DNA of 49,789 nucleotides from Armatimonadota bacterium (GCA_036504955.1 DASXUI010000430.1:1-49789); one strand, 5' to 3'; counted from the stretch's first letter, positions 8,428 to 49,789 are shown. Notes: generated by a model from the sequence alone, not told the origin. Made by a program: numbers and translations.

Positions 8428-8556
8428 TGAGGGGGCTCAGGGGGCTGAAGGGGCTAAGGGGACTTAGGGGGAGGGCCTCAGATGGCCGCCTTGGGTCCTT
8501 CCCCTAAGCCCCTACAGTCCCCTGAGCCCCCTCAGCCCCCTAGCCCCTCAGTCCCT
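8428..8556. repeat. Modular palindromic intergenic element with ~9-nt GGGGCTNAG units
   Basis: Left arm GGGGGCTCAG-GGGGCTGAAG-GGGCTAAGG-GGACTTAGG, hinge AGGGCCTCAG, right arm of complementary CCCCTGAG/CCCCCTCAG/CCCCTAG units. Confidence 0.85.
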
Positions 8557-9846
8557 CTAGTCTTCCACCCGGATCAGGTTGCTGATTGAGTGGACCACTT
8601 CCAGGCGCGTCATCTCTTCCAGGGCCGCGCGCACGTCCATCTCGCGGGCCGGGTGTGTCACCCACACGATCTCGGCGTCCCCCTGGGTTGTCTCGCGCTG
8701 GACCACGGACGCGATGCTTACGTTGTGCTCACCGAAAACGCGTGCGGTATTGGAGAGCACCTTCGGGCGGTCAATCACCTGCATCCTCACGTAGTACTTG
8801 CTGACCACCTCACCGATGGGAATGAGCCGATGGTCTTCGAAGCAGGTGCAACTGATGCGTCCCAGTGACTGGTGGTTGATGTTGCGGCAGATGTCGATGA
8901 TGTCGCCCGCCACCGCGCTGCCCGTGGGCATCATCCCCGCGCCCCGCCCATAGAACATCACGTCGCCCACCGCGTCGCCGTGCAGGAAGACCGCGTTGTA
9001 CACGTCGTTCACGGAGGCCAGCGGGTGCCGGTCATGCACCATCGCCGGGTGCACCCTGAGCTCCATGGCGTCACCGTGCAGCTTGGCGATGGCGAGCAGC
9101 TTGATCGTGTAGCCCAGCCCCTTGGCGTACTCGATGTCAACCTTGCCAATACGTCGAATGCCCTCGTGGAACACTCCGCTGATGGGCACCCGGCTCTGGA
9201 AGGCGATTGCTGAGAGGATGGCCAGCTTGTAGGCCGCGTCGTAGCCCTCCACGTCGTCCGTGGGATCCACCTCGGCGTAGCCCAGCTTCTGAGCCTCGGC
9301 CAGGGTCTCGGCGAAGTCGCTGCCCTCCCGCGCCATCTTCGTAAGGATGTAGTTGGTCGTCCCGTTTACAATGCCGATGATGGAGTTGATGCGATTCCCG
9401 GCTAGGTCGATCTTCAAGGGGCGGATGATGGGAATGCCCCCGGCTACGGCCCCCTCGAACAGGAAATCCACCGGCTTCCTGGCGGCGGAGATCAGAAGCT
9501 CGTGCCCCTCTTTGGCCAGCAGCTCCTTGTTGGCCGTCACCACGCTCTTGCCGTTGCGAATGGCGTGAAGCATGAACTCCTTGGCCGGCTGAAGCCCGCC
9601 GATGGTCTCGGCCACGATGTCGATCTCAGGGTCATCCAGAACCTGGGCGGGATCATCGGTCAGCATGGACCGGTCCACCCACTCCGGACGCTTCTTCGTG
9701 AGATGAGCGACCGCGATTCGCTTAACCACCACCCGGGAGCCAGTGAGCTGGAGGATGCGGTCCTGGTTCTCAGTGAGTACCTTCACGGTCCCACAGCCCA
9801 CGTTGCCCATACCCAGGAATCCGACCCTGATCACCTCTTTGCCCAA
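8557..9846 (-). CDS. hom: Homoserine dehydrogenase with C-terminal ACT domain
   Basis: GFLGMGNVG NAD-binding loop, VVTANKELLA, FEGAVAGGIP, NGTTNYIL, DVEGYDAAYK, GRGAG..PTGSAV and ACT domain DRPKVL. Start placed at TTG 9846 after a GGGGGTG SD-like site. Confidence 0.96.
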   Translation of the reverse strand: MGKEVIRVGFLGMGNVGCGTVKVLTENQDRILQLTGSRVVVKRIAVAHLTKKRPEWVDRSMLTDDPAQVLDDPEIDIVAETIGGLQPAKEFMLHAIRNGKSVVTANKELLAKEGHELLISAARKPVDFLFEGAVAGGIPIIRPLKIDLAGNRINSIIGIVNGTTNYILTKMAREGSDFAETLAEAQKLGYAEVDPTDDVEGYDAAYKLAILSAIAFQSRVPISGVFHEGIRRIGKVDIEYAKGLGYTIKLLAIAKLHGDAMELRVHPAMVHDRHPLASVNDVYNAVFLHGDAVGDVMFYGRGAGMMPTGSAVAGDIIDICRNINHQSLGRISCTCFEDHRLIPIGEVVSKYYVRMQVIDRPKVLSNTARVFGEHNVSIASVVQRETTQGDAEIVWVTHPAREMDVRAALEEMTRLEVVHSISNLIRVED

Positions 9847-10026
9847 GGCTACACCCCCACATCCCGTTTCGCTCCCGCGCGATGCCGCATCGCCACCCGG
9901 CTCACTGCCCCAGGGGCCGCGCGGAACTACCCCTAGCCTGCTTTGCTCACGATGGGCCCCCGGGAGGCCCGAGCTGTGCCCCATACCGTGGCGCTCCGTG
10001 CGCGGCGCGGTTGCGCCCGCTGGTCG

Positions 10027-10542
10027 CTACACATCCTCTGTAGTGCCTCCGCTCCCCCTCGGGCCAGACGGATCCACCACAACAAGCACCTGCCCCTGGG
10101 CTACCATGTCGCCGTTCGCCACCGGAAGGGCAACTACCCGGCCCTCCACCTCGCTTGGGATCTCGCTGAAGACCTTCATCGCCTCAATCAGGCCGATGGT
10201 CTGCCCTTCCTCCACGTGATCCCCCATCTCGATGAAGGGGGGATCGCCCGGGCCAGGAGCGCGGAAGAAGCATCCGGTCATCGGTGACAGCACCGGCAGG
10301 AACCGGGGATCCTCCTCCGGGCGCAGCTTCACGGGGGTAGGTTGCGCCCCGGCAGGAGCACCGGCGGCCGCCTCAAGCGGCCCTACCGGCACCTCGCCAA
10401 GCGGGGCGGCACTGCGGGCGGTCTGGGTCCTCAGGACCACCCGAACGTCCTTCTCCCGTACCTCAAGCTCCGCCAGCCCCTCGCGTTCCACAAGGTCGAT
10501 GAGCTGTCGCAACTCCGATGCTTCAAGCCGCGTGTCGTCCAT
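10027..10542 (-). CDS. accB: Acetyl-CoA carboxylase biotin carboxyl carrier protein
   Basis: N-terminal ELRQLIDLVE...LAELEV, Pro/Ala linker, SPMTG.FFRAP and biotinylation motif EAMKV. Confidence 0.92.
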   Translation of the reverse strand: MDDTRLEASELRQLIDLVEREGLAELEVREKDVRVVLRTQTARSAAPLGEVPVGPLEAAAGAPAGAQPTPVKLRPEEDPRFLPVLSPMTGCFFRAPGPGDPPFIEMGDHVEEGQTIGLIEAMKVFSEIPSEVEGRVVALPVANGDMVAQGQVLVVVDPSGPRGSGGTTEDV

Positions 10543-11019
10543 GGTTGGGGGCTCACTCCAGAGAGCGGGCGCGGAACCGAGGTCCGCGGCGAGGCTGACG
10601 AGGGGCGGGGTACGGCGGGCGTATGGTGATGGTGAACTCTACCTGCGAGGACCGAAACGGACGACCCTCGGGCCAGGGTCCACGGCGCGGACAGGGTGCC
10701 AGACTACTCAGCGACGGCCGCCCGCCGACGCCCGCTGTAGACTGCGTCCCTTGCCCGTGCTGATCGCCCTTGGGCCTGTCGCCAGCGGCAGAGCTACGTC
10801 GTTGGAGGGGTTGACGGCAGTCGAGAGCCCAAGCCCACCGGACTCCACGTATCGCGCGGCAACTGCTGGGTGGGGAAAGGCGGGGCGGACTCAGCGCAGA
10901 CGCTCCTCCCGCGCCCCGTCCAAACCGGGCACGACGGAGCGCTGCCAGCGCCCGAGCCCTGGGAGCGCGGCCAGGCGAGGCTGCTCCTGGGCAAGTGCCC
11001 GAACTCCAAGGTCACGGAA

Positions 11020-16649: not shown

Positions 16650-16727
16650 GCCCTCTCCACCCCTTCACCCCGCCTCTCGTGCGCTTCACCTCTTGACCTC
16701 CCCACCCCCTCACGCCCTTGCAGGCCC
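16650..16727. repeat. Degenerate single-arm copy of the modular element (CCTCTTCA/CCCCCTCA units)
   Basis: CCCCTTCACCCC...CTTCACCTCTTGACCTCCCCACCCCCTCACGCCCTT resembles the C-rich arms at 25217-25258 and 32505-32546. Confidence 0.55.
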
Positions 16728-16810: not shown

Positions 16811-19800
16811 ATGCCCTGCCCTACCGCCCGTCCTCTGCCGCGCGTCTGCCTGCTGATTGCGCTTTGGCTCGCCGCCCAGGCTCTGTCGGCGGAAGCTGAC
16901 CGCCCGAGTCCCCCGTACGCTCTTGGCGCCGGCCGATTCGGGGCGGGAGCCACCGGCACGGCGCCGGAGGGCTGGCGCGTCACTGACGGGGCCGGGAAGG
17001 AAGCGTCGGGCGGCTGGGTCGTGGTCGAGGACTCAGCGGCAGGCGCTTCCGGCAGGGCAGTGGAGACACGGATGCTGGCGAAGGCGCCCACCTACCTGGA
17101 GCGCGCCTTCGAGCCGACCACCGACGACCTGACTCTGGAGCTCCGGGTGCGAACCCAGTCCTCTACCTCAAGGCGTGGGATCGGGTTTGGCGTGGCCTCG
17201 GGGGCGCCCTCCGTCCTGGCGCACAGGGCCGCCTACCTTGCCTTCCTGGGCAACGGCACCATCGCCGCGCATGACGGGCAGTTTTTCAAGCAAGTGGGCA
17301 CCTACACCGCGAACACGTGGGTCTCAGTCCGGGTCGCCGTCAGCGTGCGTCTCGGCGGAATGACGGTGTGGCTGAACGGCAGACCCGCCACCACGGACCT
17401 GATCCCGCTGACGCACGGCCAGGAGCGCGTCGACCGCGTCTTCCTCACCAACGAGGGCGCCGACCCTGAGGTGGTCCGGGTGGCGGGCCTCTCCCTAACC
17501 GGCACGGCCCTCACCTCCCCGGCGCCCCTGAGCGCGGCAAGCGTGGGCGGCAGCTCAAAGCCGGCGGTGGAGCTGTCCTGGCACGCGGTGCCAGGGGCCG
17601 AGGGTTACCGCGTCTACCGGGGCCATCAGAGAGTGGCGGAGGTTAACCCTTCACCTCGCGTGCTGCCGCACGTCACCTACCGGGATGCCGGGGTGACCCA
17701 GGACCAGGCCTGTTCCTACCGAGTCACGGCCGTAAGGGGAGATGAGGAGAGCCTGCCCTCCTGGCCCACCCCGGTGCTGGTGGGTGGCACGCCGCTGCCC
17801 GCCCCCAGTCAAACGCGTTACGATGTGGTCATCTTCGGCGGCACCCCCGGAGGCGTGGCCGCCGCGGTCGCCGCCGCGCGCCGGGGCGCCTCCGTGCTGC
17901 TGCTCTCCCACAACGGCCACGTGGGCGGCATGATCTCCGGCGGACTGGGGCAGACCGACCTCCGGCTCCGCCAGGCTGCCAGCGGCCTCTTCAAAGAGAT
18001 GATCGGCCGCATTCGCGACTACTACCTCCGGACCTACGGGGCCGACTCCCGCCAGTACCAGGAGTGCGGAGGAGGGTACTGGATCGAGCCCAGCGTGGGA
18101 GAGCTGACGCTCCGGCGCATGCTGGCGGAGGAGCCGGGGATTCACGTGGCCTTCCACCAGCGGCTGACGGCCGTGCAGACGGTGCCGCTGTACGGGAACC
18201 ACTGGGCCAGCCGCAGGGTAACCGCCGTCTCCACCTCGGGCAGAGACGGGGGTACCCCTCGCCGGTACACGGGAACCACCTTCATCGATGCCAGCTACGA
18301 GGGCGACCTGGCGGCGAAGGCAGGCGCGGAGTACCGCGTGGGCCGCGAGGGACGGGCCGAGCACGGCGAGGAGTACGCGGGGATCATCTACTGGGACTGG
18401 GAGAGCGGCAAGCTGGTCGAGGGCACCACCGGCGAGGCCGACAGCCGGATCCAGGCCTACTGCTACCGTCTCACCCTCACCAACCGCGCCGCGAACCGCG
18501 TTCCCATCGCCAGACCGGAGGGGTATGACGCCGCCCCCTACGGCTCCATCGCTCAGGACGTGGCGGCCGGCAAGATCACCGGCATCGCTCAGGTGATCTA
18601 CTTCGGCAAGCTGCCGAACGAGAAGTACGACATCAATAACATGGGCAAGTACTGGCCCTCCACCGACTACATCGAGGAAAACACGGCCTATCCCTCCGCC
18701 TCGGACTCGGAGCGGGAGTCGATGGCCCTGGCCCATCGGCGATGGGCGCTGGGGCTGCTCTACTACCTCCGGAACGACCCCGGACTGCCCGAGGAGTTCC
18801 GCCGCGACGCGCTCCAGTGGGGCCTGCCCGCCGACGAGCACCAGGAGACCGGCAACTTCCCGGAGCAGCTCTACGTTCGCGAGGCGCGCCGCATCGTGGG
18901 TCGCGCGCTCTTCACCGAAAACGATGCCCGCTCCGCCGACAAGAACGTGCGGGCGCCGCTCCATCCCGACGGCGCGGCGGTGGCCGAGTACCCGCTGGAC
19001 TCGCACGCCACCCGCAAGCGGGAGCCGGGGCACCCGAACCAGCTCGAGGGCTTCTTCTACCTGCCCTTCGTCACCCGCTCCTCCCAGATCCCCTTCGGCG
19101 TGCTCACCCCCAAAGGCCTAGACGCCCTGATGGTCTGCGTCGCCACCTCCGGCACCCACGTGGGCAACTCCACCATCCGGCTTGAGCCGATCTACATGGC
19201 ACTCGGCGAGGTGTGCGGCACAACGGCCGCCCGCGCAGCCCGTCTCGGCGTGCCCCCCAACTTCGCCGCCCCCCGCCCCCTTCAGGATGACCTCCTGTCG
19301 CGGCGGGCGCAGCTCACCTTCTTCAATGGGCTGAAAGATGACGACCCCGCCTGGGCTGCCTGCCAGTACTGGGGCACGCAGGGGCTCTTCCCCAGCTACG
19401 ACGCTGCCACCAGCGGCCCCATCAGAGTTGACGACGCCACGGAGTGGCTCTTCCGCTTCCTGGCCCGAGAGAAACCGGAGCTGTGGGAGATGCCGGGGCT
19501 AGACCCAAAGATGCGCGACCCCAACAGCCCCGAGAGCCGTGCGGCCGAGGGCAGGAACGGGGCCGGCACCCGCGAGAGCCCCTACGTAGCGGCTCTCAGG
19601 GACCTCAAGGTACTGGAAGACGGAGCGGCAGCCACTTCCGATGCCTCGGTGAGCTTGGGTGAGGCCGCGCTGTGGATTGTGAAGGGGAAGCAGGCCATCG
19701 GCCGATGGAGGGGCGAGCCCTGTGCCACCGCCGTCGACGCCGCCTCAACTCTCCTCTCACGCGGAGTGCTGGTCGGCACTGAGAACCGCACCGAAGGGGA

Positions 19801-19861
19801 GCTGGGCAGGCCGGTCACGCGGGGTGAGTTGGCGCTCCTCCTCTTTCGCGCTCGGAACTGA
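16811..19861 (+). CDS. Secreted modular FAD-dependent oxidoreductase (beta-sandwich + FN3 + FAD_oxidored + SLH-like repeats)
   Basis: Signal peptide; LamG/ConA-like region; FN3 (VELSWHAVPGAEGYRVYRG...YRVTAV...ES); YDVVIFGGTPGGVAAAVAAARRG, FIDASYEGDL, YVREARRI and IRLEP of the PF12831-type family; C-terminal PVTRGELALLLFR is SLH-like. Confidence 0.85.
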   Translation: MPCPTARPLPRVCLLIALWLAAQALSAEADRPSPPYALGAGRFGAGATGTAPEGWRVTDGAGKEASGGWVVVEDSAAGASGRAVETRMLAKAPTYLERAFEPTTDDLTLELRVRTQSSTSRRGIGFGVASGAPSVLAHRAAYLAFLGNGTIAAHDGQFFKQVGTYTANTWVSVRVAVSVRLGGMTVWLNGRPATTDLIPLTHGQERVDRVFLTNEGADPEVVRVAGLSLTGTALTSPAPLSAASVGGSSKPAVELSWHAVPGAEGYRVYRGHQRVAEVNPSPRVLPHVTYRDAGVTQDQACSYRVTAVRGDEESLPSWPTPVLVGGTPLPAPSQTRYDVVIFGGTPGGVAAAVAAARRGASVLLLSHNGHVGGMISGGLGQTDLRLRQAASGLFKEMIGRIRDYYLRTYGADSRQYQECGGGYWIEPSVGELTLRRMLAEEPGIHVAFHQRLTAVQTVPLYGNHWASRRVTAVSTSGRDGGTPRRYTGTTFIDASYEGDLAAKAGAEYRVGREGRAEHGEEYAGIIYWDWESGKLVEGTTGEADSRIQAYCYRLTLTNRAANRVPIARPEGYDAAPYGSIAQDVAAGKITGIAQVIYFGKLPNEKYDINNMGKYWPSTDYIEENTAYPSASDSERESMALAHRRWALGLLYYLRNDPGLPEEFRRDALQWGLPADEHQETGNFPEQLYVREARRIVGRALFTENDARSADKNVRAPLHPDGAAVAEYPLDSHATRKREPGHPNQLEGFFYLPFVTRSSQIPFGVLTPKGLDALMVCVATSGTHVGNSTIRLEPIYMALGEVCGTTAARAARLGVPPNFAAPRPLQDDLLSRRAQLTFFNGLKDDDPAWAACQYWGTQGLFPSYDAATSGPIRVDDATEWLFRFLAREKPELWEMPGLDPKMRDPNSPESRAAEGRNGAGTRESPYVAALRDLKVLEDGAAATSDASVSLGEAALWIVKGKQAIGRWRGEPCATAVDAASTLLSRGVLVGTENRTEGELGRPVTRGELALLLFRARN

Positions 19862-19883: not shown

Positions 19884-20006
19884 CCACCAAGGCACAAGGG
19901 CACCAGGAAGCGCAGGGAAAGCTCTACCAAAAGCACTCAGTGAGCACAGAGGCTCACAGGCTGAAGGACCGATTCGGCTCCCTTGGTGTCTTGGTGTCTT
20001 GGTGGT
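19884..20006. repeat. Palindromic element with CACCAAGA-type 8-nt units
   Basis: CCACCAAGGCACAAGGGCACCAGG ... CCTTGGTGTCTTGGTGTCTTGGTGG, between convergent genes and overlapping the 3' end of the minus-strand ORF. Confidence 0.8.
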
Positions 20007-22494
20007 GAGGCAGTTCCTGGCCGCAGACTGAGGCCTCCCAGGCGACAAGGCCCACGGGTGCATACAGTAGGCCGGTCGCGGCCGCCAGAACCCCGGCGTC
20101 GTTCACCAGGAAGGCGACGAGCCCGGCGAGCAGGATCGAGGTGAGGCCGATGCCCACCGCGCCCGGGGGCCAGCCCTCCCCGGCAGGGGGACGGGTCCAC
20201 GCCGGCAGGCGCGTCCGGAGCGCTCCTCTCCAGTAGTACAGGGCGCAGGGGAGCAGCGCGAGCTGCATCAGGCGGCTCCAGGGGCTGTACATCAGCAGGC
20301 GCAGGTTGATGGCCCACTTGCGCTGGAAGACCATCAGCAGCTCCCCTACCCCCAGCTCCTGAACCGAGCGCACGAGGCGGCCCACGTGGGTGCTCTGCCC
20401 ACCCCGCGCCAAGTCGGCAAGAACCACCAGCGTCACCACTGCCACCAGGCTGAAGAAGCACCCCAGGATCAGGCGCCGGGTGATGGGCCGGTTCCAGAAG
20501 CGCAGCAGCGCGAAGGAGAAGGCGAGGGAGGCCGTGATCGCGCCGCCGAACTTGGCGCCCCAGGAGGGGCCGGCCAGCACCAGCGCGGTGAGTCCGAACA
20601 GCGCCGCGGCGACCCATCGCCAGGGCGTGGGCCTTACCTCGGGCCCTCCACGTCGAGAGCCCCGTGCCACCAGCACTGACGCCGCCAGCAGCGCGGCCGC
20701 GATCAGGCAGCCCATGAACTCGTTGCCAATTCCGTAGTACCGAGCGCCCTCCATCACGGAGTAGCTGAGGATGGTGTAAGGCATCGCCTGGAAGCCGCGC
20801 AATCCATCGGCGATCGTTCCAACCACCAAGAGTGACGCCAGCACCAGCACTCCCGCAAGGGGCACGCGCGTCCACCTCTCCAGCACTCCCGCTAGAGCGG
20901 CGAGCCCTATCGCTCCCGTGACAAGGAGGGCGGAGTAGCCTGCCACGCTCAGCGCCGGCAGGCCGCCCCCTGCGAGCACGACCACCGGCAGGGCCAGTAG
21001 CACGAGCCCCAGTGCGCGCCCGGCACGGGTCACCCATCGGTATCCACCGAAGAGCGCCCACAGCGCCAGCAGAACCATCCCCCAGCGCCACGTCTCCAGT
21101 ACCCAGCGTAGAGCCCGCCGCCGTTGGACCTCTACCGCCACCAGCCGGCCGTGGAGGCCCTGCGCCGCCGGGACCGCCCCTTTCACGGGCTGAGCCACCA
21201 TGGGCCGCCCCACGATGGTTGGGTCCTCCCCAAGCCCCAGCACAGAGGCGATGGTGGGCGCCACGTCGGTGTTGGCGACGATACCCCGCCGCCGCGTCGT
21301 TGGCGATGTCAGCAGCGCGCCCCCTCCCACGGGACCCGCGACGGCCGCGACTGGAGGTCCCGCGAGTGAAGGGCGGGCACCCTGCAAGGGCGGGGGCAGA
21401 GGCGCTCCCCCGCGGGCCCCGGGCCCACTGGCGGCTCTCTGGAGTAATGAGGCTGGTGACGCCACGACCGGGGCAAGGAGGTCGAATCCCGTGCGTGACT
21501 CCCTGCCCGGATGCGGGGAGACCAGCAGCAGCAGGTCGGATTCAGGACGCAACACCCGACGAAGCTGGCCCAGCAGCCGGTCTAGGTCGGTCAGCATGCG
21601 TGCCCGAGCGTCCAGATACCGGGTGTCCGTCATCCATCGGCGGTAGTCGTCCAACCTCGCGGCATCGCCCCAATCAATGACGATGAGCCCCACCTTCGGG
21701 CCTGCCGCCCGGCGGACAGACTCGGCGAGAGCCCGCACGGAGGTCTCGCGCCCGAAGGGGGCGGCGGCGCGATACCGCGTGGCGAAGGACGGCGCCGGCA
21801 ACTCCTGCCCCACTCCAGGGGCCGCGCCCACGATCCCAAGACGATCCATGGCAACCATGGCCGCCTCGCGGTGGGGCTCCTCGGGCCGGTCGGCGTCCCC
21901 CAGCACCACCGCCTGCAGCCCTGCTGCCCGCAGAAGCTGCCCAAGAGCTCCTGGGTGGGCGGTGTAGCCGATCCCGGTGTTGGCCTCCTCCAGGTGCAGG
22001 GGGTTGAGCTGCAGGACCTGGCAGGCCTCCGGCGAGAGCAGGTTCCGCCGCAGATACACCTCGGAAGCGGGGCCGCTCTCCCACTGCTCGTCGGGCGAGA
22101 AGGCACCGCCGCTCACCAGCCCGGCCACGCACCGCGTCCCGGCGCCCAGAGTCAGGTAGGCGCTGGCACGCTGAGGGTCAGCGGTAAGGCGCTCGGCCTC
22201 TTGAGGCGTGTAGCGGGAGGGGATGGCGCGGGTGTTCATCAGCCCCAGCGCCCCTCGGTCCCGCCACCACCGCAGGTTGGGCAGCCCCTTGGCCTCCACC
22301 ACTTCCGTGAAGGTGAGGGTCGGCACCAGCAGGAGAAAGCACCGTGTCCTGAGCGGGGCCGGCTTCGGCGATTGGGCGCGGCACTCGGGCGCGCTGATTG
22401 CACCGAGACACAGAAGCGGCAGGGCGAGCCATCGAGCCCAGACGGCTCGTGCTCCGTACACCCATGGAAGCCCCCCAGACCCTACCCTACACAT
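19954..22494 (-). CDS. Large membrane protein: extracytoplasmic alkaline-phosphatase-fold-like domain plus a multi-TM domain
   Basis: Signal/TM, soluble domain ending LLTSPTTRRRGIVANTDVAPTI, then about 10 TM helices with GARYYGIGNE, GAKFGG, THVGR, RKWAIN and LVNDAGV motifs. Start (ATG 22494 or 22515) overlaps the GT4 stop. Confidence 0.7.
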   Translation of the reverse strand: MCRVGSGGLPWVYGARAVWARWLALPLLCLGAISAPECRAQSPKPAPLRTRCFLLLVPTLTFTEVVEAKGLPNLRWWRDRGALGLMNTRAIPSRYTPQEAERLTADPQRASAYLTLGAGTRCVAGLVSGGAFSPDEQWESGPASEVYLRRNLLSPEACQVLQLNPLHLEEANTGIGYTAHPGALGQLLRAAGLQAVVLGDADRPEEPHREAAMVAMDRLGIVGAAPGVGQELPAPSFATRYRAAAPFGRETSVRALAESVRRAAGPKVGLIVIDWGDAARLDDYRRWMTDTRYLDARARMLTDLDRLLGQLRRVLRPESDLLLLVSPHPGRESRTGFDLLAPVVASPASLLQRAASGPGARGGAPLPPPLQGARPSLAGPPVAAVAGPVGGGALLTSPTTRRRGIVANTDVAPTIASVLGLGEDPTIVGRPMVAQPVKGAVPAAQGLHGRLVAVEVQRRRALRWVLETWRWGMVLLALWALFGGYRWVTRAGRALGLVLLALPVVVLAGGGLPALSVAGYSALLVTGAIGLAALAGVLERWTRVPLAGVLVLASLLVVGTIADGLRGFQAMPYTILSYSVMEGARYYGIGNEFMGCLIAAALLAASVLVARGSRRGGPEVRPTPWRWVAAALFGLTALVLAGPSWGAKFGGAITASLAFSFALLRFWNRPITRRLILGCFFSLVAVVTLVVLADLARGGQSTHVGRLVRSVQELGVGELLMVFQRKWAINLRLLMYSPWSRLMQLALLPCALYYWRGALRTRLPAWTRPPAGEGWPPGAVGIGLTSILLAGLVAFLVNDAGVLAAATGLLYAPVGLVAWEASVCGQELPHHQDTKTPREPNRSFSL

Positions 22495-23746: not shown

Positions 23747-23893
23747 CACCACCAAGACACCAAGAAGGGCCTGAGGAGGTGAAGAGGTGAGGGGGTGAAA
23801 GAGCCTCAGCGCGCGGAGTGATCCACTGACCCGGGGGTCTGGGGCCCTTGCACCCCCTCATGCTCTTCTCTGTGCTCTCTGTGCCTCTGTGGT
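23747..23893. repeat. Composite modular element carrying three different repeat units
   Basis: CACCACCAAGACACCAAG + AAGGGCCTGAG + GAGGTGAA/GGGGGTGA units + AAGAGCCTCAG ... GGCCCTT-CCCCCTCA + CTCTGTGCTCTCTGTGCCTCTGTGGT. Confidence 0.85.
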
Positions 23894-25161: not shown

Positions 25162-25258
25162 AGAGGTGAGTGGGCCTCAGCATAGGGATCCGAGCGTGCA
25201 CAGGCCTGCTTCTGAGGCCCTTTCGCCTCTTCACCTCCTCACCTCTTCAGTCACCTCA
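25128..25258. repeat. Modular palindromic element with GAGGTGAA 8-nt units
   Basis: GAGGTGA(A/G) units + GGGCCTCAG + 36-nt core + GCCCTT + CCTCTTCA/CCTCCTCA units, between convergent mpg and purA. Confidence 0.88.
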
Positions 25259-25263
25259 TTCCC

Positions 25264-26789: not shown

Positions 26790-26824
26790 AAAAAAAGAGG
26801 ATGGAGGGCGAGAGCCTTCCAACC
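26790..26824 (-). terminator. Terminator-like hairpin + T7 in the purA upstream region
   Basis: Minus strand GGTTGGAAGGC-TCTC-GCCCTCCATCC-TC-TTTTTTT. Confidence 0.65.
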
Positions 26825-34007: not shown

Positions 34008-34314
34008 ATGTTTCTCCTTCCGAGCCGGCGGCATGCGGCGTCCGGCCCAAGGCATTATCGTCCGTGGCAAGCGCGGGCTATAGAAGCCCCAACTGCCGTA
34101 TGGATCTTCCATGAAGGGGCCGAACTCATCGCGCGGGCAGGCCCGCCGTCGAGGCCCGGAGGGCCCGTAGGGCAGCCCCCTCAGCTTCTCGCATCCCTCG
34201 GCCGAAAAGGGAAACGGAGTAGCTTCTTTCGACCCGCGCGCTCGCCTGGGAAAGGCCGCGTGGTCGCGGCGCGGTTGGCACTGCCGGCCTTGGCTGGCTG
34301 GAAGGTGGGGCATC

Positions 34315-38225: not shown

Positions 38226-38294
38226 CTGGAGGCCCCGCCCCTCTCACCCCCTCGCCACTTCGCCTCTTCACCCCCTCATCGCCCCTCAGGCTCC
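38226..38294. repeat. Single-arm modular element overlapping the nth 3' end
   Basis: Reverse complement GGGAGCCTGAG-GGGCGATGA-GGGGGTGA-AGAGGCGA-AGTGGCGA-GGGGGTGA-GAGGGGC-GGGGCCTCCAG matches the 23765-23809 pattern. Confidence 0.7.
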
Positions 38295-39691: not shown

Positions 39692-40330
39692 TTGCAGGAA
39701 TGGGACGCGAAGTACGAGAAGTGCCCGGGGTTCTTTGGCGAGGACCCCAACCCCCTGACCGAGGAGTTCGCCCGACTGGTCCGTGTCCGGATGACCCTCA
39801 ACATGGTACTGGACCTTGGCTGCGGACCCGGCCGAGACAGCCTCTACCTGGCGGCGCAGGGACTGGAGGTCACGGCGATGGACGCCTCGGAGAGGGCCAT
39901 CGAGCTGCTTCAGGCCAAGCTGGAGGACTCTGACCTCCTGACCCTATGCCAACCGGTCAGAGCCGACGCCACCGAGGGGCTGCCCTTCTCCGACGACTTC
40001 TTCCAGGGCATCTTCGCATACCTGTTCCTCAACACCGAGATGAGCGAGGCCGACCTGGGGTACGTGCTGCGTGAGATCCACCGCAGTCTGGAGCCAGGCG
40101 GCTTGTTCGTCGGCTCCGTGCGCTCCGCCACGGACTCCGAATGCGGCCAGGGCGAACAGCTCGGGCCAGACATGTACCGCCCGGGCAGCATCGCCGTCCG
40201 CTTCTTCACGGAGGAGAGCCTCCGTGACTGGCTCCAAGACTTCGAGATTGAGCGCCTCGAACCCAAGCAAGTCCCCATTGGCGGCCACACCTTCGACGTC
40301 CTGGAGTTCATCGCGACGAAGGCGGAGTGA
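39692..40330 (+). CDS. Class I SAM-dependent methyltransferase
   Basis: VLDLGCGPGRDSLYLA..G..VTAMDAS, LPFSDD.F and EIHRSLEPGG. AAGGAGG RBS before a TTG start. Confidence 0.9.
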   Translation: MQEWDAKYEKCPGFFGEDPNPLTEEFARLVRVRMTLNMVLDLGCGPGRDSLYLAAQGLEVTAMDASERAIELLQAKLEDSDLLTLCQPVRADATEGLPFSDDFFQGIFAYLFLNTEMSEADLGYVLREIHRSLEPGGLFVGSVRSATDSECGQGEQLGPDMYRPGSIAVRFFTEESLRDWLQDFEIERLEPKQVPIGGHTFDVLEFIATKAE

Positions 40331-40337: not shown

Positions 40338-40563
40338 CACCACAGAGGCACAGAGGACACAGAGAAGGGCATGGGGACACGTGGCTCCACAGCCCCTCAC
40401 GCCCCTACCCCCTCTCCCGCGCGACGGGCGAGGGGGCTCGCATGGAGGTTGGTGGCTTCTTTGCAGCCTAGAGCACCCTGTCGTCGCGGGCAGCGGAGTT
40501 GTACCTGAGCCCCCTCGCCCGCCGCGCGGGAGAGGGGGTAGGGGCGTGAGGGGCTGTGGAGCC
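40338..40563. repeat. CACAGAGG module followed by a 57-bp inverted repeat (REP/MITE-like)
   Basis: CACCACAGAGGCACAGAGGACACAGAGAAGGGC, then arms 40383-40439 and 40507-40563, complementary with one mismatch around a 67-nt loop. Confidence 0.9.
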
Positions 40564-44220: not shown

Positions 44221-44263
44221 GGGTGTTGGGTCTAGGGTGCTGGGTGCTGTCTGCCGGGCAGAC
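44221..44263. repeat. Four 7-nt GGGT(G/C)NN units plus a small hairpin
   Basis: GGGTGTT-GGGTCTA-GGGTGCT-GGGTGCT then TGTCTGCC-G-GGCAGACA, between the two FHA genes. Confidence 0.6.
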
Positions 44264-44278: not shown

Positions 44279-45613
44279 CTATAGGCCCCGGTGGGCGGAC
44301 ACGGGCTCCCAGCGGAAACGGATGTGGCCGCGAGGGACACCCTCTCCCTCCACCTGAAGGGAGTCTTCGGGCTCGAGGTCGATCTCGCGGCCAACCTCGA
44401 GCGGCGCGCCCTGGAAAGTGGCCTGGACCTCCCGATCCAGCCATTCCAGAGAGACCGTGCCCCAGTTGCGGATCAGCGCGACGGCCTGCTGACGGCGGAA
44501 GCGGGAGTAGTTCGGGTTGTGAGCCACGTAGATGTCGTCACCCGCCGCGTTCAGGCCCAGGTACACGTCGCCGTTGTAGACGATGACCCTTGACGAGGCC
44601 GGGTCGGCTAGCCCATCCGGCCGGTGGAGCGCCTGCACGGGAGTGCTGTAGCCCCATCTCAGTCCCTGGAGGCTGCCGTTCCACCCGAAGGGCGGTACGG
44701 GCTCGCTCACCTGACCATCGCCCGGGCTGAAGAGCATCACCACCGGCTCCCGGCGTCCGGAAGCATCCCCGCTGTTCACGGCGATCAGGTCGCCGGCCTT
44801 AAGCCACAGCTCCCGGTAGTAGTCCTGCTCCTGGGCGCCCCCGCGCTTCTTCAGGTGTATGGCGCGGTCGCCCCTTCGTATCAGGGTGCCATTGGTGCTG
44901 TGATCCACAAGCACGAAGCCGTCCACTCCCGGCTTGTTCTCGAAGTGGATGGAGAAGTGCTGCTTGCTGATCAGGCGCTCGAGGGCGGGGTCCCGCACCG
45001 GCACCACGTTTCCCGAGGCGCCATCAACCCGGAGGCCGAAGGTGAAGCTCGTTTTGAGAGAGTAGGGCTGGACGCCGGCCCCATCGCGCACGAAGAGCTG
45101 GAAGTGCTGGGCGAAGGGCTCCTCGACGGTCCCAAGCAGCTCCGTGGCGCTCAGCCCGCCGGCCAGGTGATCCATGGCCCCTCGGTCCACGCGCCATCGC
45201 ACCTCCAGGCGCTCCAGCGTCGGGTTCGGGCTGCGCTTGACGACCATCTCCTCGACCTGCACCACTCGACCGGGCACTACCAGCCCCCGCTCCTCCGCCC
45301 ACTGGGTAAGGCCTCGCGATAGGTCGTCCCCAATGGCGTCCTTCTCCTCCTCCACCTGAAGGCCGCGCGCCGGGGTGGCAAGGTAGAGCGCGAAGGAGAG
45401 GAGGTTCGCGGTCTCACCCTCCGAGCCGCGCGAGCGGGACCTCGAGGAGCGCTTCAGGGCCTCCTCCGCCAAGTCCTCCAGCCAGGAGTAGAGCGACTCC
45501 GTGTTCAGGTCCTGGGCGGCGAACTGGTAGGTGCCGCTGGAATGCGTCCAGGACCGGGTGGGCTGCACGAAGCGGCGCCGCAACCCCTCCAGGAGCTTGT
45601 TCCTCTGCGCCAT
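44279..45613 (-). CDS. FhaA-like protein (DUF3662-like N-terminus + FHA domain + second beta domain)
   Basis: FHA motifs FGLR, ISKQH, LVDHSTNGT and L.AGDLI. N-terminal ...DDLSRGLTQWAEERG....G.V.V resembles FhaA DUF3662. AAGGAG RBS. Confidence 0.82.
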   Translation of the reverse strand: MAQRNKLLEGLRRRFVQPTRSWTHSSGTYQFAAQDLNTESLYSWLEDLAEEALKRSSRSRSRGSEGETANLLSFALYLATPARGLQVEEEKDAIGDDLSRGLTQWAEERGLVVPGRVVQVEEMVVKRSPNPTLERLEVRWRVDRGAMDHLAGGLSATELLGTVEEPFAQHFQLFVRDGAGVQPYSLKTSFTFGLRVDGASGNVVPVRDPALERLISKQHFSIHFENKPGVDGFVLVDHSTNGTLIRRGDRAIHLKKRGGAQEQDYYRELWLKAGDLIAVNSGDASGRREPVVMLFSPGDGQVSEPVPPFGWNGSLQGLRWGYSTPVQALHRPDGLADPASSRVIVYNGDVYLGLNAAGDDIYVAHNPNYSRFRRQQAVALIRNWGTVSLEWLDREVQATFQGAPLEVGREIDLEPEDSLQVEGEGVPRGHIRFRWEPVSAHRGL

Positions 45614-45733
45614 CTGCACCCACTCCTTCCTGGCCCACACCATGCACGACGCGCCTGCGCCCCGGGCATGGCGCGGGCCCACACACGCTCACGTGAATCG
45701 GCAGGCTAGGCCTGCGGCCCCCACCCCACGGCC

Positions 45734-45796: not shown

Positions 45797-45841
45797 GTCT
45801 TATATCCCTTACGTCCCTTTGGCCTCTTTGGTCCCTTCAGC
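45797..45841. repeat. 9-nt CCCTTNGGT-type tandem units
   Basis: GTCTTATAT-CCCTTACGT-CCCTTTGGC-CTCTTTGGT-CCCTTCAGC; the same unit type occurs at 49757-49789. Confidence 0.7.
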
Positions 45842-45878
45842 AGAGCGACCACAGGGGCCCAATGTCATCCCACAGCAT

Positions 45879-45921
45879 CCCTGTGGAGAGGACCGAGGGT
45901 GTGCCGGTCCTCTCCACAGGG
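45879..45921 (-). terminator. Strong hairpin downstream of the SEDS-PBP fusion gene
   Basis: Perfect 17-bp stem CCCTGTGGAGAGGACCG/CGGTCCTCTCCACAGGG with a 9-nt loop and no clear U-tract. Confidence 0.6.
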
Positions 45922-45960
45922 CCGCCGTGTTTCTGCACCAAACAGCCAAATGTGAACCCT

Positions 45961-48900
45961 CTACGGTCCGCCAGTCCCCAGTGCCGACAGTGCGCGGTCC
46001 AGGATCAGCGGCACGCCCACTTCGGCGGCGGTCATGCCCCCGGTGCCCACCGGCCGGCTGCCGATGCGGGTCTCCGCGCCCTGCACCCAAAGCGCGAGGG
46101 CAACCTTCGGCTTGGCCCCTTGGGGGCCGTCCCAGGGCCCGAAGGTGACGAACCACGCATCGTTCTCCCACTGCCCGGTGCGCGACCGGCCGGCCTCCGC
46201 GGTGCCCGTCTTGGAGGGGAACCGCTTGGAGCCCTTCCAGACAGGGAAGGCGGTGCCTCCCCGCTCATCGGCGGCGGCCATCATCGAGGCCACTGACGAC
46301 GCCACCTGCGGTCGCCATACGTCCCGGCTCCAGGCGTTGCTGGTGGTGCGCCAGTGAGGGCTAACGAGGTGCCCACCGTTGGCGATGGCGCAGACGCTCC
46401 GGATCACCTCATCCACGCTCATCGAGAGGGTCTGCCCGTAGGCGACCCACGGAAGATAGCGCTTGAAACGCTCCTGCACCTTGAGGTTGGGCTTGCTCGG
46501 ATCCCCAACGCTTTGCACGCCCAGGCGCTGGTAGGCCCCCAGAAGGGCGGCCGACCCAGCGGCAACGGCCGCCTGCGCGGCACCCTCGTTGCAGCTCAGT
46601 TTGATGATGTCACGGGGGGCCACGTAACCGTGCCGCGCCGGCCGGCCGCCCTTCACCATACACGCTACAGGCAGGCCCTGAACCCTCCTGCCTCCGACGC
46701 ACCACCACCGGTGCCCTGCCCAGGACCGGTCCTGCTGAAGCAGCGAGGCGATGGTGGTGATCTTGGCCACCGACCCGGGCGCCCGTGCGGAGTAGTGAAG
46801 GTTGTCGGTCAGCGGGCTGGGGTTGCTGTTGAGCAGTGAGTCGAGGGAGGCGAAGCTTTCGGACACCTGAGCCGGGGAGTAGCTGGGTACCTGAGCCACC
46901 GCAAGGTACTCGCCGTTCCGTGGGTCCACCACAGCCATCACCGCCTGCCTGGGAACACCGCCCGCCAGGGGGCGGGTCTGGTCCATCCGGTCGACCACAC
47001 GCTTCAGGCGGGAGTAGCACAGGCTCTGGAGGTCGCGAATCACGGTCAGCCGCTCCGGCTGGGGCGTGATGAGCAGCGGCTCTCTGCCCCAGGGGCTATG
47101 CAGCCCGCGCCACGCCCTGAGAAGGGCGGTGCCCTGGCGCCGGTGCCGCTCCTCCGCGGGCAGGGCCTCCTGGCTCACGGAACCGATCCCGGTCAGAAGC
47201 TCCATCAGTGACCGCTCGTTCCCGTATGCCTCGCCCCACACCGTCCGTATGCCGGTCAGTGGTGCGAGGGCCTCCCCCTCCAGTCCGTCCAGGTACCGGC
47301 GCTGCTTCAGGCGATGGCCGCTGGGCTGCTCCTGAGCAGCTTCCTCGGGCTCCAGGCCCGCCGACTCGTCTTCAGGAGACGTCGACCAGGCGGCCCTGAC
47401 CAGGTTGGTGGGGGCCCAACTGCCGGAGGAGCGGCGCACCAGCAGGTCGCCCGGGTCTAGACCTTGCAGAACGGATCCAAGCCGGACGTTCCCGTGCCCG
47501 CCGCCTCGTCCGGCGTAGGTCCGCAGGGCCAGCGATTCCCCGGCATTCCAGAGGCGCAGGTACTGACACAGACACAGCACCGCCACAACCCCGAAGGCGG
47601 CGTAGCTCCATGTCAGCATCCGTCGCAGGCTGCGGCCCGGCAGAGCTTGGCGGGGGGACTGCGAGAAGGCCAGCGCCACGGCGACCAGCACGCCGAAAGC
47701 GGCCGCGCTCCAGGCGCCGGAGGCCGCGGGAGCCAGCGTAAGCCCCGTCAGTGGCAGCAGGAAGCTGTTGGCGCCGAGCATGTACACCGTCTGGATGCCC
47801 AGTACCGCGGCGCTGGTGAGTGCCACCCAGCGCGCGAAGGGGTCAGGATGGGTCATTCCGATTCGGCAGAGCCGCCAGAGGACCAGGCTAAACAGGAGCA
47901 CCACCGCCAGCACCCCAGCCAGGCCGAGCTGCTCGAAGTAGAAGGGGAGCGCGACATCGTTCAGGTCCGAGGCGGCCTCGCCGCGGGATCCGTTCCCCAA
48001 GCCCGTACCCAGCAGAACGCTGGGGGCCGACGACACGCGGTAGAGGGCGTTCGCCATCTGGTCGGAGGGGGCGTCGAAGGGCTGACGCAGCATCTGCCAG
48101 CGCTCGGGGAAGGCGATGCGCCACTCCAGCCTCTCCGTCAGCACCGGCGAGAGCGCGACCACCAGAGTGCAGCCCAGGACCAGCAGCCCTGCGGCGGCCA
48201 GGAACGGCCCCTGACGCCGCAGGGCTAGCGAGGCAACCAGGCCCGCCGGCAGCCAGAGCAGGAGCAAGAAGCCCAGGTCGCCGGTGGAGAGCACCAGCGC
48301 GAGGCACCCAAGGTACCACAGACCGGCCGCCATCAGGTCCTGAGCGGGAATGAGGGTGAAGCGCCGCTCCAGCCGGTCCTCGTGGCGCGCGCAGAAGCTG
48401 GCCATGAAGAGGATGAGCGCGAGCTTCGACCCCTCGATGTACAGGAAGCTGAAGCCGCTCTCCTGGGTGCGTGCGAGGAAGAAGGCGGCCGTAGCGAGCA
48501 TGAGCGCGAGCAGGGCAGGCCGGGCCGTGAGGGTTCGGTACCCGAAGGCGAGCGTGGCGGCAAGGCCGGCCAGCCCCAGGAAGCCCAGAAGAGGAGCCCG
48601 AGCCATCGCGTTCGCCGCCAGCAGGCTGAAGGCCAGCCCGACCCACACGAAGGCGCCGGCGGACCCGCGCTCCAAAGCTTCGGCGAAGCCCCCCTTGCGG
48701 CCCCGCCCGGAGCCTCGGGCAGCCACCACGGCCAGCAGGGGCATCAGCGCCAGTGCCCCAAGCACGGCCCACCCCTGCCGCAGATAAGCTGGGCCCTGAA
48801 GCAGATGGCCGAACACGGGGGCCTCGGGGTCGGTCAGAGGGGAGGACACACCGAAGAGCACCAGTACGGACAGGCACCCCAGCCCACCATATGCGGGCAG

Positions 48901-49662
48901 AAGGTAGCCGTCGGACCTCGGCGCCATCCATCGAAGGACGAGATGAGCTAGAAGCAGGGCCCCTAGCAGCAGCTCCACCAGTAGCTGAAGGTCGCGCTTC
49001 GTGTCCTCCAAGTCGCGCAAGCTAAGGCCTTCGCGCGAGACCGCGCTGATACCGGCCAGGGAAAGGTCCTGATCCTCGGGGGGCGGCACCATCCGGCGGC
49101 GCTGGAGAATGCGCTCCACGGAGACCGGATCGCCCAGCGCCTTCAGCAGCTTCGGCGCGGGGCTCCGGGCGAGGGTAAGCTTGGGGTCGGCGGCCCTTGC
49201 GCGTGCCCAGCGGGGGACCAAGGCCGGGTTCAGCCCGCCCACTCGCGGCTCCGGCTTGCGAGTCGCGTCGGTCTTGAGCAGCGCTTCCAGCCGCTTCGTG
49301 TCCCGTGCCTTGACCGCCTCCTCGATGTCGCGCGTCTCCGCGCGGGGGCGGCGGGACAGCGAGGGGATCTGCGCCAGGTTGCTGAACCGGCCGGAGCGCT
49401 GCTCATCGCGTGCCGCGACCACCCCCTCGGCAAGCCGTAGGGGGGAGCCGGTGAACTCGGAGAGCTGCTTGGCGGTGCTGGTGTTCACGTTGAGCCAGAC
49501 ACGCCCGGCAACGCTGGCCTCGCGAGCCTGGTACGCGGTCACGGCGCCCAACGCGACCAGTGGAAGCAGAACCGACAGCAGCAGCCCCTCGCGACGACGG
49601 GGCGGGCGGGCCAACAGGAACGCCAGAAGGGGGCAGGCGAGAAGAGCTCCGAGGGCGATCAT
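45961..49662 (-). CDS. Fusion of a ComEA-like helix-hairpin-helix domain, a SEDS (RodA/FtsW) glycosyltransferase and a class B PBP transpeptidase
   Basis: LNVNTSTAKQL......LAEGVVAAR...GRFSNL (HhH_3-like); SEDS motifs DGYLLP, EGSK, GDLG, GTGLG.G, LND.....EQLG and LLPLTGLTL; transpeptidase SVAK (SxxK), SCN (SxN) and KTG. Start ATG 49662 or GTG 49665. Confidence 0.9.
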   Translation of the reverse strand: MIALGALLACPLLAFLLARPPRRREGLLLSVLLPLVALGAVTAYQAREASVAGRVWLNVNTSTAKQLSEFTGSPLRLAEGVVAARDEQRSGRFSNLAQIPSLSRRPRAETRDIEEAVKARDTKRLEALLKTDATRKPEPRVGGLNPALVPRWARARAADPKLTLARSPAPKLLKALGDPVSVERILQRRRMVPPPEDQDLSLAGISAVSREGLSLRDLEDTKRDLQLLVELLLGALLLAHLVLRWMAPRSDGYLLPAYGGLGCLSVLVLFGVSSPLTDPEAPVFGHLLQGPAYLRQGWAVLGALALMPLLAVVAARGSGRGRKGGFAEALERGSAGAFVWVGLAFSLLAANAMARAPLLGFLGLAGLAATLAFGYRTLTARPALLALMLATAAFFLARTQESGFSFLYIEGSKLALILFMASFCARHEDRLERRFTLIPAQDLMAAGLWYLGCLALVLSTGDLGFLLLLWLPAGLVASLALRRQGPFLAAAGLLVLGCTLVVALSPVLTERLEWRIAFPERWQMLRQPFDAPSDQMANALYRVSSAPSVLLGTGLGNGSRGEAASDLNDVALPFYFEQLGLAGVLAVVLLFSLVLWRLCRIGMTHPDPFARWVALTSAAVLGIQTVYMLGANSFLLPLTGLTLAPAASGAWSAAAFGVLVAVALAFSQSPRQALPGRSLRRMLTWSYAAFGVVAVLCLCQYLRLWNAGESLALRTYAGRGGGHGNVRLGSVLQGLDPGDLLVRRSSGSWAPTNLVRAAWSTSPEDESAGLEPEEAAQEQPSGHRLKQRRYLDGLEGEALAPLTGIRTVWGEAYGNERSLMELLTGIGSVSQEALPAEERHRRQGTALLRAWRGLHSPWGREPLLITPQPERLTVIRDLQSLCYSRLKRVVDRMDQTRPLAGGVPRQAVMAVVDPRNGEYLAVAQVPSYSPAQVSESFASLDSLLNSNPSPLTDNLHYSARAPGSVAKITTIASLLQQDRSWAGHRWWCVGGRRVQGLPVACMVKGGRPARHGYVAPRDIIKLSCNEGAAQAAVAAGSAALLGAYQRLGVQSVGDPSKPNLKVQERFKRYLPWVAYGQTLSMSVDEVIRSVCAIANGGHLVSPHWRTTSNAWSRDVWRPQVASSVASMMAAADERGGTAFPVWKGSKRFPSKTGTAEAGRSRTGQWENDAWFVTFGPWDGPQGAKPKVALALWVQGAETRIGSRPVGTGGMTAAEVGVPLILDRALSALGTGGP

Positions 49663-49668
49663 CACCCG

Positions 49669-49696
49669 TTAGACTGGAAGGAAGCAGGTATGGTTC
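49669..49696 (-). promoter_or_regulatory. ECF-type promoter for the HhH-SEDS-PBP gene, probably giving a leaderless mRNA
   Basis: Minus strand GAACCA-N16-GTCTAA, then 6 nt to the ATG; no SD. Same motif and spacing as at 13804-13831. Confidence 0.7.
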
Positions 49697-49700
49697 ATTG

Positions 49701-49789
49701 GGAAGGGGTCGTAGGGTCGTAGGGTCGTTGGGTCGTTGGGAAGGGCCTCATAGGGTGTCCTTTGGCCCCTTGCGTCCCTTCGGTCCCTT
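49701..49789. repeat. Composite modular element (GGGTCGT(A/T) x4 + hinge + 9-nt units), truncated by the window edge
   Basis: GGGTCGTA-GGGTCGTA-GGGTCGTT-GGGTCGTT-GGG-AAGGGCCTCA...TCCTTTGGC-CCCTTGCGT-CCCTTCGGT-CCCTT. Confidence 0.85.

Follow-up and report, generated by a model that had tools for sequence, protein, structure and literature searches.

The subject here is a family of intergenic hairpin elements, in which inverted arms of short tandem units adjoin a constant hinge, found in a stretch of 49,789 nucleotides (the window) from an Armatimonadota bacterium. Several described systems come close to it. In the bacterial interspersed mosaic elements (BIMEs), repetitive extragenic palindromes (REPs) alternate in orientation and are joined by linker motifs. 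The BIMEs of enterobacteria are described as a mosaic of few motifs (PMC2817692). The REPs of the REPIN-RAYT system (REP doublets forming hairpins and their REP-associated tyrosine transposase) are presented as short palindromes that occur hundreds of times between genes, mostly at gene 3' ends, and that form gene-less inverted doublets and also flank, as the same repeats inverted, a stand-alone transposase gene of the Y1/HUH kind (PMC2817692, PMC3116915, PMC3333891). The intervening sequences (IVS) of 23S rRNA, for instance in Coxiella burnetii, are described as an S23p, or four-helix-bundle, open reading frame (ORF) between terminal inverted repeats that form a long stem; their scattered distribution is taken in that source to suggest horizontal spread, and mobility is suspected and unexplained (PMC4990558). 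Insertion sequences that land in REP palindromes are also known (Tobes & Pareja 2006, PMC1525189).

The loci of the window are members of a set of about 1000 hairpin elements in this genome, and we lean towards the view that they are gene-less derivatives, resembling REPs or miniature inverted-repeat transposable elements (MITEs), of gene-bearing cassettes, and that they are nested within one another at their tips. The descriptive part of this explanation is very likely right, and for insertion at the tip as the mechanism the chances are roughly even. The window makes up contig C430 in an assembly of 6.32 Mb and 663 contigs (67% G+C, 98% complete) from a soil bacterium; no other genome of its genus or family was among the species genomes compared, and its nearest kin are of the same order. 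For the genome, Tandem Repeats Finder returned 1456 rows with a period of 8 nt and 1449 with a period of 9 nt, as compared to 202 for period 7 and 384 for period 10, and the arrays of periods 8 and 9 sort into few unit families. These were named K (CACCAAGA), R (CACAGAGG), C (GGGGCTNAG), V (GGGGGTGA/GAGGTGAA), T (GGGTCGTW), P (AAGGGACC) and S (GGTCGGAC); X denotes a REP-like inner module, and the hinge is (A)AGGGCCTSAG, with AAGRGCC as its short core. Arrays of at least three units number 390 for T, 383 for R, 148 for K, 132 for C, 128 for P, 98 for V and 74 for S, and their clustering gave 1024 composite elements with a total length of 93 kb.

An earlier note, made from the window alone, had proposed a modular family with tandem units at a constant hinge, and the genome agrees with this. 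The exact hinge AGGGCCTSAG occurs 350 times in 6.3 Mb, as compared to about 54 times expected by base composition, and 210 of these copies have a tandem array within 14 nt on their 5' side, always on the same strand, where about 2.3 would be expected. The adjoining arrays are T in 150 cases, V in 29, C in 27, R in two, and S and K in one each, so different unit types do abut the same hinge. With up to two mismatches allowed, the hinge 11-mer is found on the inner side of 82% of the T, 70% of the V and 52% of the C arrays with at least three units (background 1.2%), and the core AAGRGCC on the inner side of 44% of K, 55% of R, 66% of C, 68% of S, 74% of V and 83% of T arrays (background 8.8%). 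In the window itself there are six exact hinges, as compared to 0.94 expected, a number that was reached in none of 100 shuffles. Four of them, at 8472, 23766, 32417 and 32459 (+), had been named in the note, while its sites 25172, 27444 (reverse complement) and 49741 turned out to be one-mismatch copies; the other two are at 25212 (-) and at 28568 (+), the latter within an ORF and far from arrays, which looks like a chance match.

Complete elements are imperfect palindromes in which K or R arrays are followed, from the outside to the inside, by C, V or T arrays, the hinge and the inner modules. The polarity is uniform, as all 242 inverted pairs of the same type (K, R, C, V, T or S, 10-400 nt apart) have the unit first and its complement second. 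The order of the layers is strict; all 75 combinations of a K or R array with a C, V or T array have the K or R array on the outside, and K stands before R 99 times as compared to 36 times in the reverse order. K and R elements have the outer termini GAACTGCCYCACCAC in common, which also recur at the boundaries between K and R arrays, and the T arms start with a half-conserved T(G/A)(A/G)GGGC. Behind the hinge, V arms mostly have a conserved 31-nt loop, C arms a short asymmetric tip, and T arms mostly GGTCCCTT/AAGGGACC arrays, GGTCGGAC arrays or one of several REP-like palindromes, preferences that are clear and not exclusive. The GGTCCCTT/AAGGGACC arrays inside T-hinge elements are divided unevenly about the loop, with 3+1, 1+3 or 2+2 units, and the total inner length of these elements (e.g. 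C84:4850-5005 and C158:6364-6487) is constant at about 92-104 nt.

This anatomy is like that of BIMEs in being a modular build from a small set of motifs in regular orders, but the modules here are concentric layers of one long palindrome with a strict order from the outside to the inside. It is also like that of MITEs, since the elements are non-autonomous and short, have inverted ends and many copies, and are kin to rarer gene-bearing elements; terminal inverted repeats are present, and the z-scores of the predicted fold are -3.4 to -10.3 in four of the five complete elements of the window and -1.8 in the fifth (19884-20006). Unlike in MITEs, the whole element is a palindrome and not a unique core with short terminal repeats, no DDE-type parent was identified, and the gene-bearing copies with the same arms encode no known transposase.

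The layers could also be a record of unit turnover, if the arrays were built in place by addition of units at the hinge, acting as a growth zone, through slippage or templated synthesis. The strict order from outer to inner layers would fit this, as would the presence of K units on one arm only in elements with R-type outer termini, and the similarity of the units, as the hinge GGGCCTCAG differs from the C unit GGGGCTCAG by one base and the C unit from the V unit by one base. Each cassette lineage in other genomes also has its own unit. We nevertheless find growth in place rather improbable: the complete outer termini between K and R arrays look like whole element halves, separate units consisting of X repeats and a Y1 gene hold the same inner position, and a search of the 98%-complete assembly for an RVT_1 reverse transcriptase gave none. 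The last result also leaves unsupported the idea, put forward in the note, that the elements are re-synthesised at the hinge. Its other idea, recombination at the hinge, is one way to read the chimeras and the strict order of the layers, but nested insertion fits these equally well.

No Y1, four-helix-bundle or GxxExxY gene was found in the window. Elsewhere in the genome it was possible to observe gene-bearing copies with the same arms. The single GxxExxY gene of the genome (C343:5499-5846; TIGR04256, 134-137 bits) is enclosed by R(+) at 5458-5481 and R(-) at 5874-5897, with three R units on each side. A four-helix-bundle gene (C489:3022-3318; 67.9 bits against TIGR02436, cut-off 24) is enclosed by T(+) at 2931-2962 and T(-) at 3407-3438, with four T units on each side and a degenerate hinge beside each arm. 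The genome has three matches to TIGR02436, namely this gene, one with an in-frame stop and one that is partial. Judging from these sequences, and from those of other genomes described below, the K and R arms appear to belong to cassettes of the GxxExxY gene and the T arms to cassettes of the four-helix-bundle gene, which is probably also the case for the related C and V arms, and both kinds of cassettes occur in many bacteria. The note's proposal of a non-autonomous REP- or MITE-like family is borne out.

The remaining ORFs between widely spaced arms were for the most part either spurious high-GC frames through the repeats or ordinary genes of the host, such as prs and a glycosyltransferase gene, with a separate element on each side. 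The only match of a 183-amino-acid ORF between arms was to the N-terminal part of cyanophycin synthetase, with a score far below the cut-off.

A four-helix-bundle (TIGR02436/23S rRNA intervening sequence protein) ORF between stem-forming inverted repeats, as in C489:3022-3318, is also what characterises the rRNA IVS. The elements described here differ from these in lying between protein-coding genes, in having tandem arrays as arms, and in being nested, with gene-less copies outnumbering gene-bearing copies by more than 100 to 1. No 23S rRNA gene was found in the assembly.

The note had also stated that no transposase or RAYT is in the window, which is true, but the genome has eight Y1 (PF01797) genes and five of them are flanked by inverted REP-like repeats. 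Two of the five, Y1_a and Y1_b, are near-identical and lie within inverted X repeats, with inverted words of 40 and 27 nt. One of these (C462:965-1303) is located between 40-nt X repeats that in turn lie within T-hinge arms, whereas the second copy has the X repeats alone, without T-hinge arms. Y1_c, Y1_e and Y1_g each have inverted repeats of their own, 35-40 nt long. The X module is represented by 120 exact 18-mers in the genome, and 43 of 53 X(+)/X(-) pairs have a spacing of 100-199 nt (median 101), which is the layout of a gene-less REPIN-like doublet. The REP-like repeats of the Y1 genes sit directly inside T-hinge, V-hinge and R arms: among the modules behind hinges some are identical to the g-type repeat and others resemble the c-type repeat, and all that the CCGATGAACGA module has in common with the e-type repeat is the loop motif CGATGAAC. 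There is no TnpB in the genome, and with inverted flanking repeats and no TnpB the genomic context of the Y1 genes is RAYT-like. The flanks of the three further Y1 genes share no inverted repeat of 14 nt or more (only a 13-mer for Y1_d). As side observations, at least four different REP-like inverted repeats, each around its own Y1 gene, are found in one genome (on C462, C219, C151 and C611), and one of the three Y1 genes without flanking repeats is an ORF of 491 amino acids from the first start codon.

The likeness to REPIN-RAYT systems thus lies in the gene-less doublets of the X module and in Y1 genes flanked by their own repeats (X and three further types). The differences are that the arms here are tandem units of 8-9 nt, of exchangeable types and with a shared hinge, that the gene-bearing copies with tandem arms carry four-helix-bundle or GxxExxY genes and not Y1, and that the Y1 proteins scanned pass the cut-off of the IS200/IS605 model and not that of the curated RAYT model. 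The flanking of a Y1 gene is seen for the inner modules and not for the tandem-arm elements, as tandem arrays (T, V, C, K or R) do not directly enclose any of the eight Y1 genes. As with the insertion sequences that target REPs, mobile DNA landing in existing palindromic repeats would give nested structures, but the units here are hairpin elements or REP doublets, and the hinge or tip would be their landing site.

It is conceivable, although unlikely, that all classes of elements, the tandem-arm hairpins among them, are of the REP/BIME type and owe both their origin and their spread to the Y1 (RAYT-like) transposases of the genome, with the GxxExxY and four-helix-bundle genes carried along as passengers. 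Such an origin would agree with the five Y1 genes in inverted REP-like repeats, with the position of these repeats directly inside the T-hinge, V-hinge and R arms, with the Y1 gene found within T-hinge arms, and with the lack of TnpB, which makes the Y1 genes stand-alone. The elements also prefer the 3' ends of genes, as REPs do, and their mosaic build is reminiscent of what is described for BIMEs. On the other hand, the one Y1 gene in T-hinge arms is a case of a nested X unit, and its second copy does without these arms; in the absence of any Y1 gene directly between tandem arrays, the K, R and T arms are seen to bracket GxxExxY or four-helix-bundle genes both here and in other genomes, and in the latter there is no Y1 in the cassette.

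Related arms were observed in other genomes. Among 200 other genomes sampled from the phylum, 23 from at least ten families have R arrays (three CACAGAG units), with a maximum of 66 matches as compared to 262 in this genome; the reversed R control gave no match in 18 of the 23 and one or two in the other five (2 as compared to 6 in G010, and 2 as compared to 5 in G151). An R pair encloses a GxxExxY gene in one of these genomes, and in another a decayed GxxExxY gene adjoins R arrays. Relatives of the GxxExxY protein, 53-73% identical, were found at 80 loci in Acidobacteriota, Verrucomicrobiota, Planctomycetota, Chloroflexota, Bacteroidota, Proteobacteria, Gemmatimonadota and others. At 40 of the 80 loci an inverted word of at least 12 nt is common to the two 200-nt flanks, and from these we picked 18 for inspection, all of which have tandem arrays. 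Seven of the 18 have CACCAAG as their unit, which is the K unit here, and the others have variants such as CACAAAG, CGCCAAG, CGCAGAG and CGCAACG; the arms of the closest relatives are ACCACCAAGACACCAAG. Four-helix-bundle loci in other genomes of the phylum have inverted tandem arrays (7-9 nt) in 10 of 13 cases, each with its own unit. The link between CACAGAG/CACCAAG palindromes and the GxxExxY and four-helix-bundle genes, which the note had mentioned, is present in the R and T arms here and in CACCAAG or related arms in many phyla.

The hinge has a different distribution. T arrays are present in the same-order genome G004 (21 matches) and the more distant G009 (7 matches), both without the hinge AAGGGCCTCAG. 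The T-hinge junction has 221 copies in this genome, is absent from 40 relatives and gave no exact match in metagenome contigs, where relatives of the Y1 protein are at most 48% identical, and the hinge is not enriched in five genomes that bear R arrays. As the arms are found in other genomes and the hinge junction in this genome only, it appears that the arm types are old or widely travelling, and that this hinge and the nesting are features of the lineage, as far as the genomes searched can tell.

The positions of the elements relative to genes were counted with a crude codon-usage gene caller covering 80% of the genome, and the counts are therefore approximate. There are 539 elements with both neighbours within 400 nt, of which 341 lie between co-directional genes, 151 in convergent gaps (28%, as compared to 16% of all gene pairs) and 47 in divergent gaps (8.7%, as compared to 16%); the elements avoid promoters. 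Where T arms face the 3' end of a gene, the stop codon is exactly 4 nt ahead of the first unit in 53 of 207 cases. The T(G/A)(A/G) triplet is about equally common on T arms that face no called gene, and so seems to belong to the end of the element. At the hom|thrC junction the C-type hairpin of this genome directly follows the hom stop codon. The same junction in G004 of the same order (L150, C598) has a hairpin of GGGGATCG/GGGGGTCG-type units with about 130 nt of unrelated inner sequence, and in G002, likewise of that order, there is a 15-nt gap and no insert.

The position after stop codons and between convergent genes, together with the strong hairpins, could mean that the elements are not mobile DNA but RNA elements selected by the host, such as 3' stabilisers, RNase III sites or terminators. 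An rRNA IVS with an S23p ORF is indeed described as being cut out by RNase III at its terminal stem (PMC4990558). There is, however, no T-run after the hairpins of the window, a feature that intrinsic terminators have. The wobble mismatches do not favour the transcribed strand (158 as compared to 126, p=0.066), the asymmetric C-type tip has no preferred orientation relative to transcription (6 as compared to 12, p=0.24), and there is thus no sign of selection at the RNA level in wobble bias or tip orientation. Many copies are single arms that are unable to fold, and the hom|thrC site is empty in one relative and has a different hairpin in another. Such a role as the explanation of the family seems to us improbable.

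That the elements are an artefact of a fragmented metagenome bin is hardly credible. The assembly does have 663 contigs, and 251 of the 1024 composite elements are at contig edges, which shows that the repeats break assembly, but hundreds of elements are inside contigs with unique flanks, and related arrays are present in other genomes. Furthermore, a contig from the independent run X1, which may be the source sample, covers 24909-27485, including the element at 25131-25250, with no differences.

The explanation that we prefer, with gene-less derivatives of cassettes nested at the tips, would involve the following steps. The cassettes would have multiplied in this lineage and come to lie within one another at the hairpin tip, the gene-less copies having been moved in trans. 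The hairpin tip or the hinge may be the preferred landing site, and the movement may act on folded single-stranded or cruciform DNA. The Y1/REP units would be a third party, with their REPIN-like doublets sitting just inside the hinge. If later arrivals landed in the tips of earlier ones, this would explain why the hinge recurs at the layer boundaries and why a separate unit of X repeats and Y1 gene lies just inside T-hinge arms.

Several observations weigh against nested cassettes. The genome has one GxxExxY gene and three four-helix-bundle matches as compared to more than 1000 hairpins. The four Y1 proteins that were scanned are IS200/IS605 TnpA according to NCBIfam (64-81 bits, cut-off 55), and only two of them gave any match to the curated RAYT model, at 19-21 bits (cut-off 80). 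Simple nesting predicts mirror-symmetric layers, whereas the patterns KRk (24), RKr (11), KRkr (9) and Kr (15) are more frequent than KRrk (4). Single arms are common, and the halves of T-hinge-X elements are often mismatched, the identity of the variable segment being 0.665 within and 0.55 between elements; simple nesting explains neither the half-elements nor these mismatched halves. The private covariation of the arm arrays is weak (0.87 as compared to 0.84). Concerning insertion, hom|thrC is the sole orthologous site compared; the purA neighbourhood of the relatives is not syntenic, the gene at 44279-45682 has no orthologue at E<=1e-60 in seven relatives, and the metagenome contigs yielded no close relative. 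The contigs of two public DNA runs gave no empty allele, their joints being other copies of the repeat family. Abutting direct repeats of at least 3 nt were found at 4% of R elements (n=25) as compared to 1.5% (sd 2.3) in shuffles, and at 0% of T elements (n=7), figures for elements with poorly defined outer ends; in the R elements the flanks are still complementary.

The elements of the window are listed in Table 1. The twelve loci of the note correspond to five complete hairpins, five single arms, one element cut by the contig end and one doubtful case, the GGGTGCT locus at 44221, which is weak and has no fold. Five loci lie between convergent ORFs, as had been stated (19884, 25128, 32399, 38226 and 40338).

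Table 1. Hairpin elements, arms and related arrays in the window (positions in nt from its first letter; fold as predicted free energy of the DNA and z-score, where given)
Position	Strand	Type	Composition	Context	Fold
8428-8556		Complete C-type hairpin	Four GGGGCTNAG units, hinge AGGGCCTCAG at 8472-8481, short loop; second half with degenerate hinge copy, then four to five complementary units	Fills the gap between hom stop (8557) and thrC start (8402), both genes on - strand	-46.3 kcal/mol, z -5.7
16650-16720	-	Degenerate single C-rich arm, no partner arm	V-like CACCCC/TCACC units	Upstream of ORF 16811-19861	Not above shuffles, z -0.2
19884-20006		K-type hairpin	Decayed left arm CCACCAAGGCACAAGGGCACCAGG; right arm of three CTTGGTGT units (19981-20004)	Between convergent ORFs	Weak, z -1.8
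23747-23893		Composite, outer arms unmatched (K left, R right)	Left: two K units, hinge AGGGCCTGAG (23766), three V units, hinge-like AGAGCCTCAG, loop; right: complementary V remnant, then three R-type (CTCTGTG) units as outer arm	Between divergent ORFs	z -3.4
25131-25250		Complete V-type hairpin	GAGGTGAA/GGGTGAA units, hinge TGGGCCTCAG, conserved 31-nt loop; second half with exact hinge copy on - strand (25212-25221), then complementary units	Flanked by ORF 24556-25161 (+) and purA 25264-26580 (-)	-44.2 kcal/mol, z -8.4
27444-27488	-	Single right half of T element	CACCCTCTGAGGCCCC (one-mismatch hinge), then four AACGACCC units	Ends 5 nt before stop of ORF 27493-29364 (-)	
32399-32546		Hairpin, complete over 32422-32546; no right R arm	Left: two R units, hinge AGGGCCTGAG (32417), four V units, hinge AGGGCCTCAG (32459), 31-nt loop; right: hinge copy, four complementary V units	Between convergent ORFs 31640-32383 (+) and 32550-34433 (-)	-60.9 kcal/mol, z -10.3
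38226-38290	-	Degenerate single C-rich arm	CCCCTCA/CACCCCCTC units	Between convergent ORFs	None, z +0.6
40341-40365	+	Single R arm	Three CACAGAGG units and hinge-like AAGGGCATGGGG	Starts 11 nt past stop of ORF 39692-40330 (+)	
40392-40554		V-like arms in reversed order (C-rich first)	Arms around a separate long palindrome (40410-40537)		
44221-44249	+	Doubtful member	GGGTGYT run of four units; doublet 3 times genome-wide		None, z 0.0
45797-45845	+	Single array, inner 'p' module of T elements	About four (G)GTCCCTT-like units; T arms and hinge absent		
49701-49789	+	Left half of T element	Four GGGTCGTW units, GGGAAGGGCCTCAT (one-mismatch hinge), AGGGTGTCCTT, then three GTCCCTT-type units	Cut by contig end	

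The p arrays, such as the one at 45797, are typical inner modules of T-hinge elements. Two of the hairpins reach into coding sequence, as the final codons and stop of ORF 19954-22515 (-) are sequence of the element at 19884-20006, and ORF 24556-25161 (+) stops within the left arm of the V-type hairpin, its last codons and stop (25131-25161) being element sequence. Next to the T arm at 27444-27488, the 3' end of ORF 27493-29364 contains CCG triplet repeats and repeats of the 15-nt GCCGCCGCCGCCTGAA (27500-27562). The palindrome at 40410-40537 (CCCTCTCCCGCGCGACGGGCGAGGGGGCTC ... and its complement) folds with z -6.2, and the arms that bracket it are unlike all other pairs in polarity. A perfect 17-bp hairpin (CCCTGTGGAGAGGACCG ... 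CGGTCCTCTCCACAGGG) was observed at 45878-45925, downstream of the large gene 45961-49665 (-), an ORF of 1234 amino acids in which an FtsW/RodA-like part (residues about 405-667) is joined in frame to a PBP2-like transpeptidase part (residues about 877-1194).

The window gave no Rfam family at gathering scores. Four genomic elements searched against Rfam matched miRNA-precursor models alone, all below threshold, and such models stand for long hairpins in general. Neither a T-hinge-X element nor the element at 32399-32546 of the window had a blastn match in a plasmid collection.

The REP/RAYT part of this system is of a known kind, while the hinge-sharing, layer-ordered tandem-unit hairpins tied to GxxExxY and four-helix-bundle cassettes are, to our knowledge, undescribed. 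In the literature searched there was no account of tandem-unit arms or of such cassettes outside rRNA, and one paper has GxxExxY as a domain name only. We would tentatively suggest, as a less secure and wider proposal, that tandem-unit hairpins are a distinct and widespread class of bacterial mobile elements, whose autonomous forms would be the four-helix-bundle and GxxExxY cassettes, of the same kind as the rRNA IVS. They may move as folded single strands or cruciforms and settle by preference in the hairpin tips (hinges) of copies already present, or immediately after stop codons, which in this genome would give Russian-doll palindromes with a fixed order of layers. If this is true, the GxxExxY protein, which is like PD-(D/E)XK nucleases, and the Avd-like four-helix bundle would belong to a new type of machinery for transposition or homing.

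For genome analysis the repeats have practical consequences, as they break short-read assemblies, and as they give host genes stop codons and C-terminal tails, so that annotation is affected. The finding links intergenic hairpin repeats with rRNA intervening sequences and with two very large protein families of unexplained role, the four-helix-bundle/23S rRNA IVS protein and GxxExxY. This genome is an extreme case, in which about 1000 copies of several arm types, with and without genes, stand beside Y1/REP units, and it is a natural data set for the ends of the elements, their target and the order of events.

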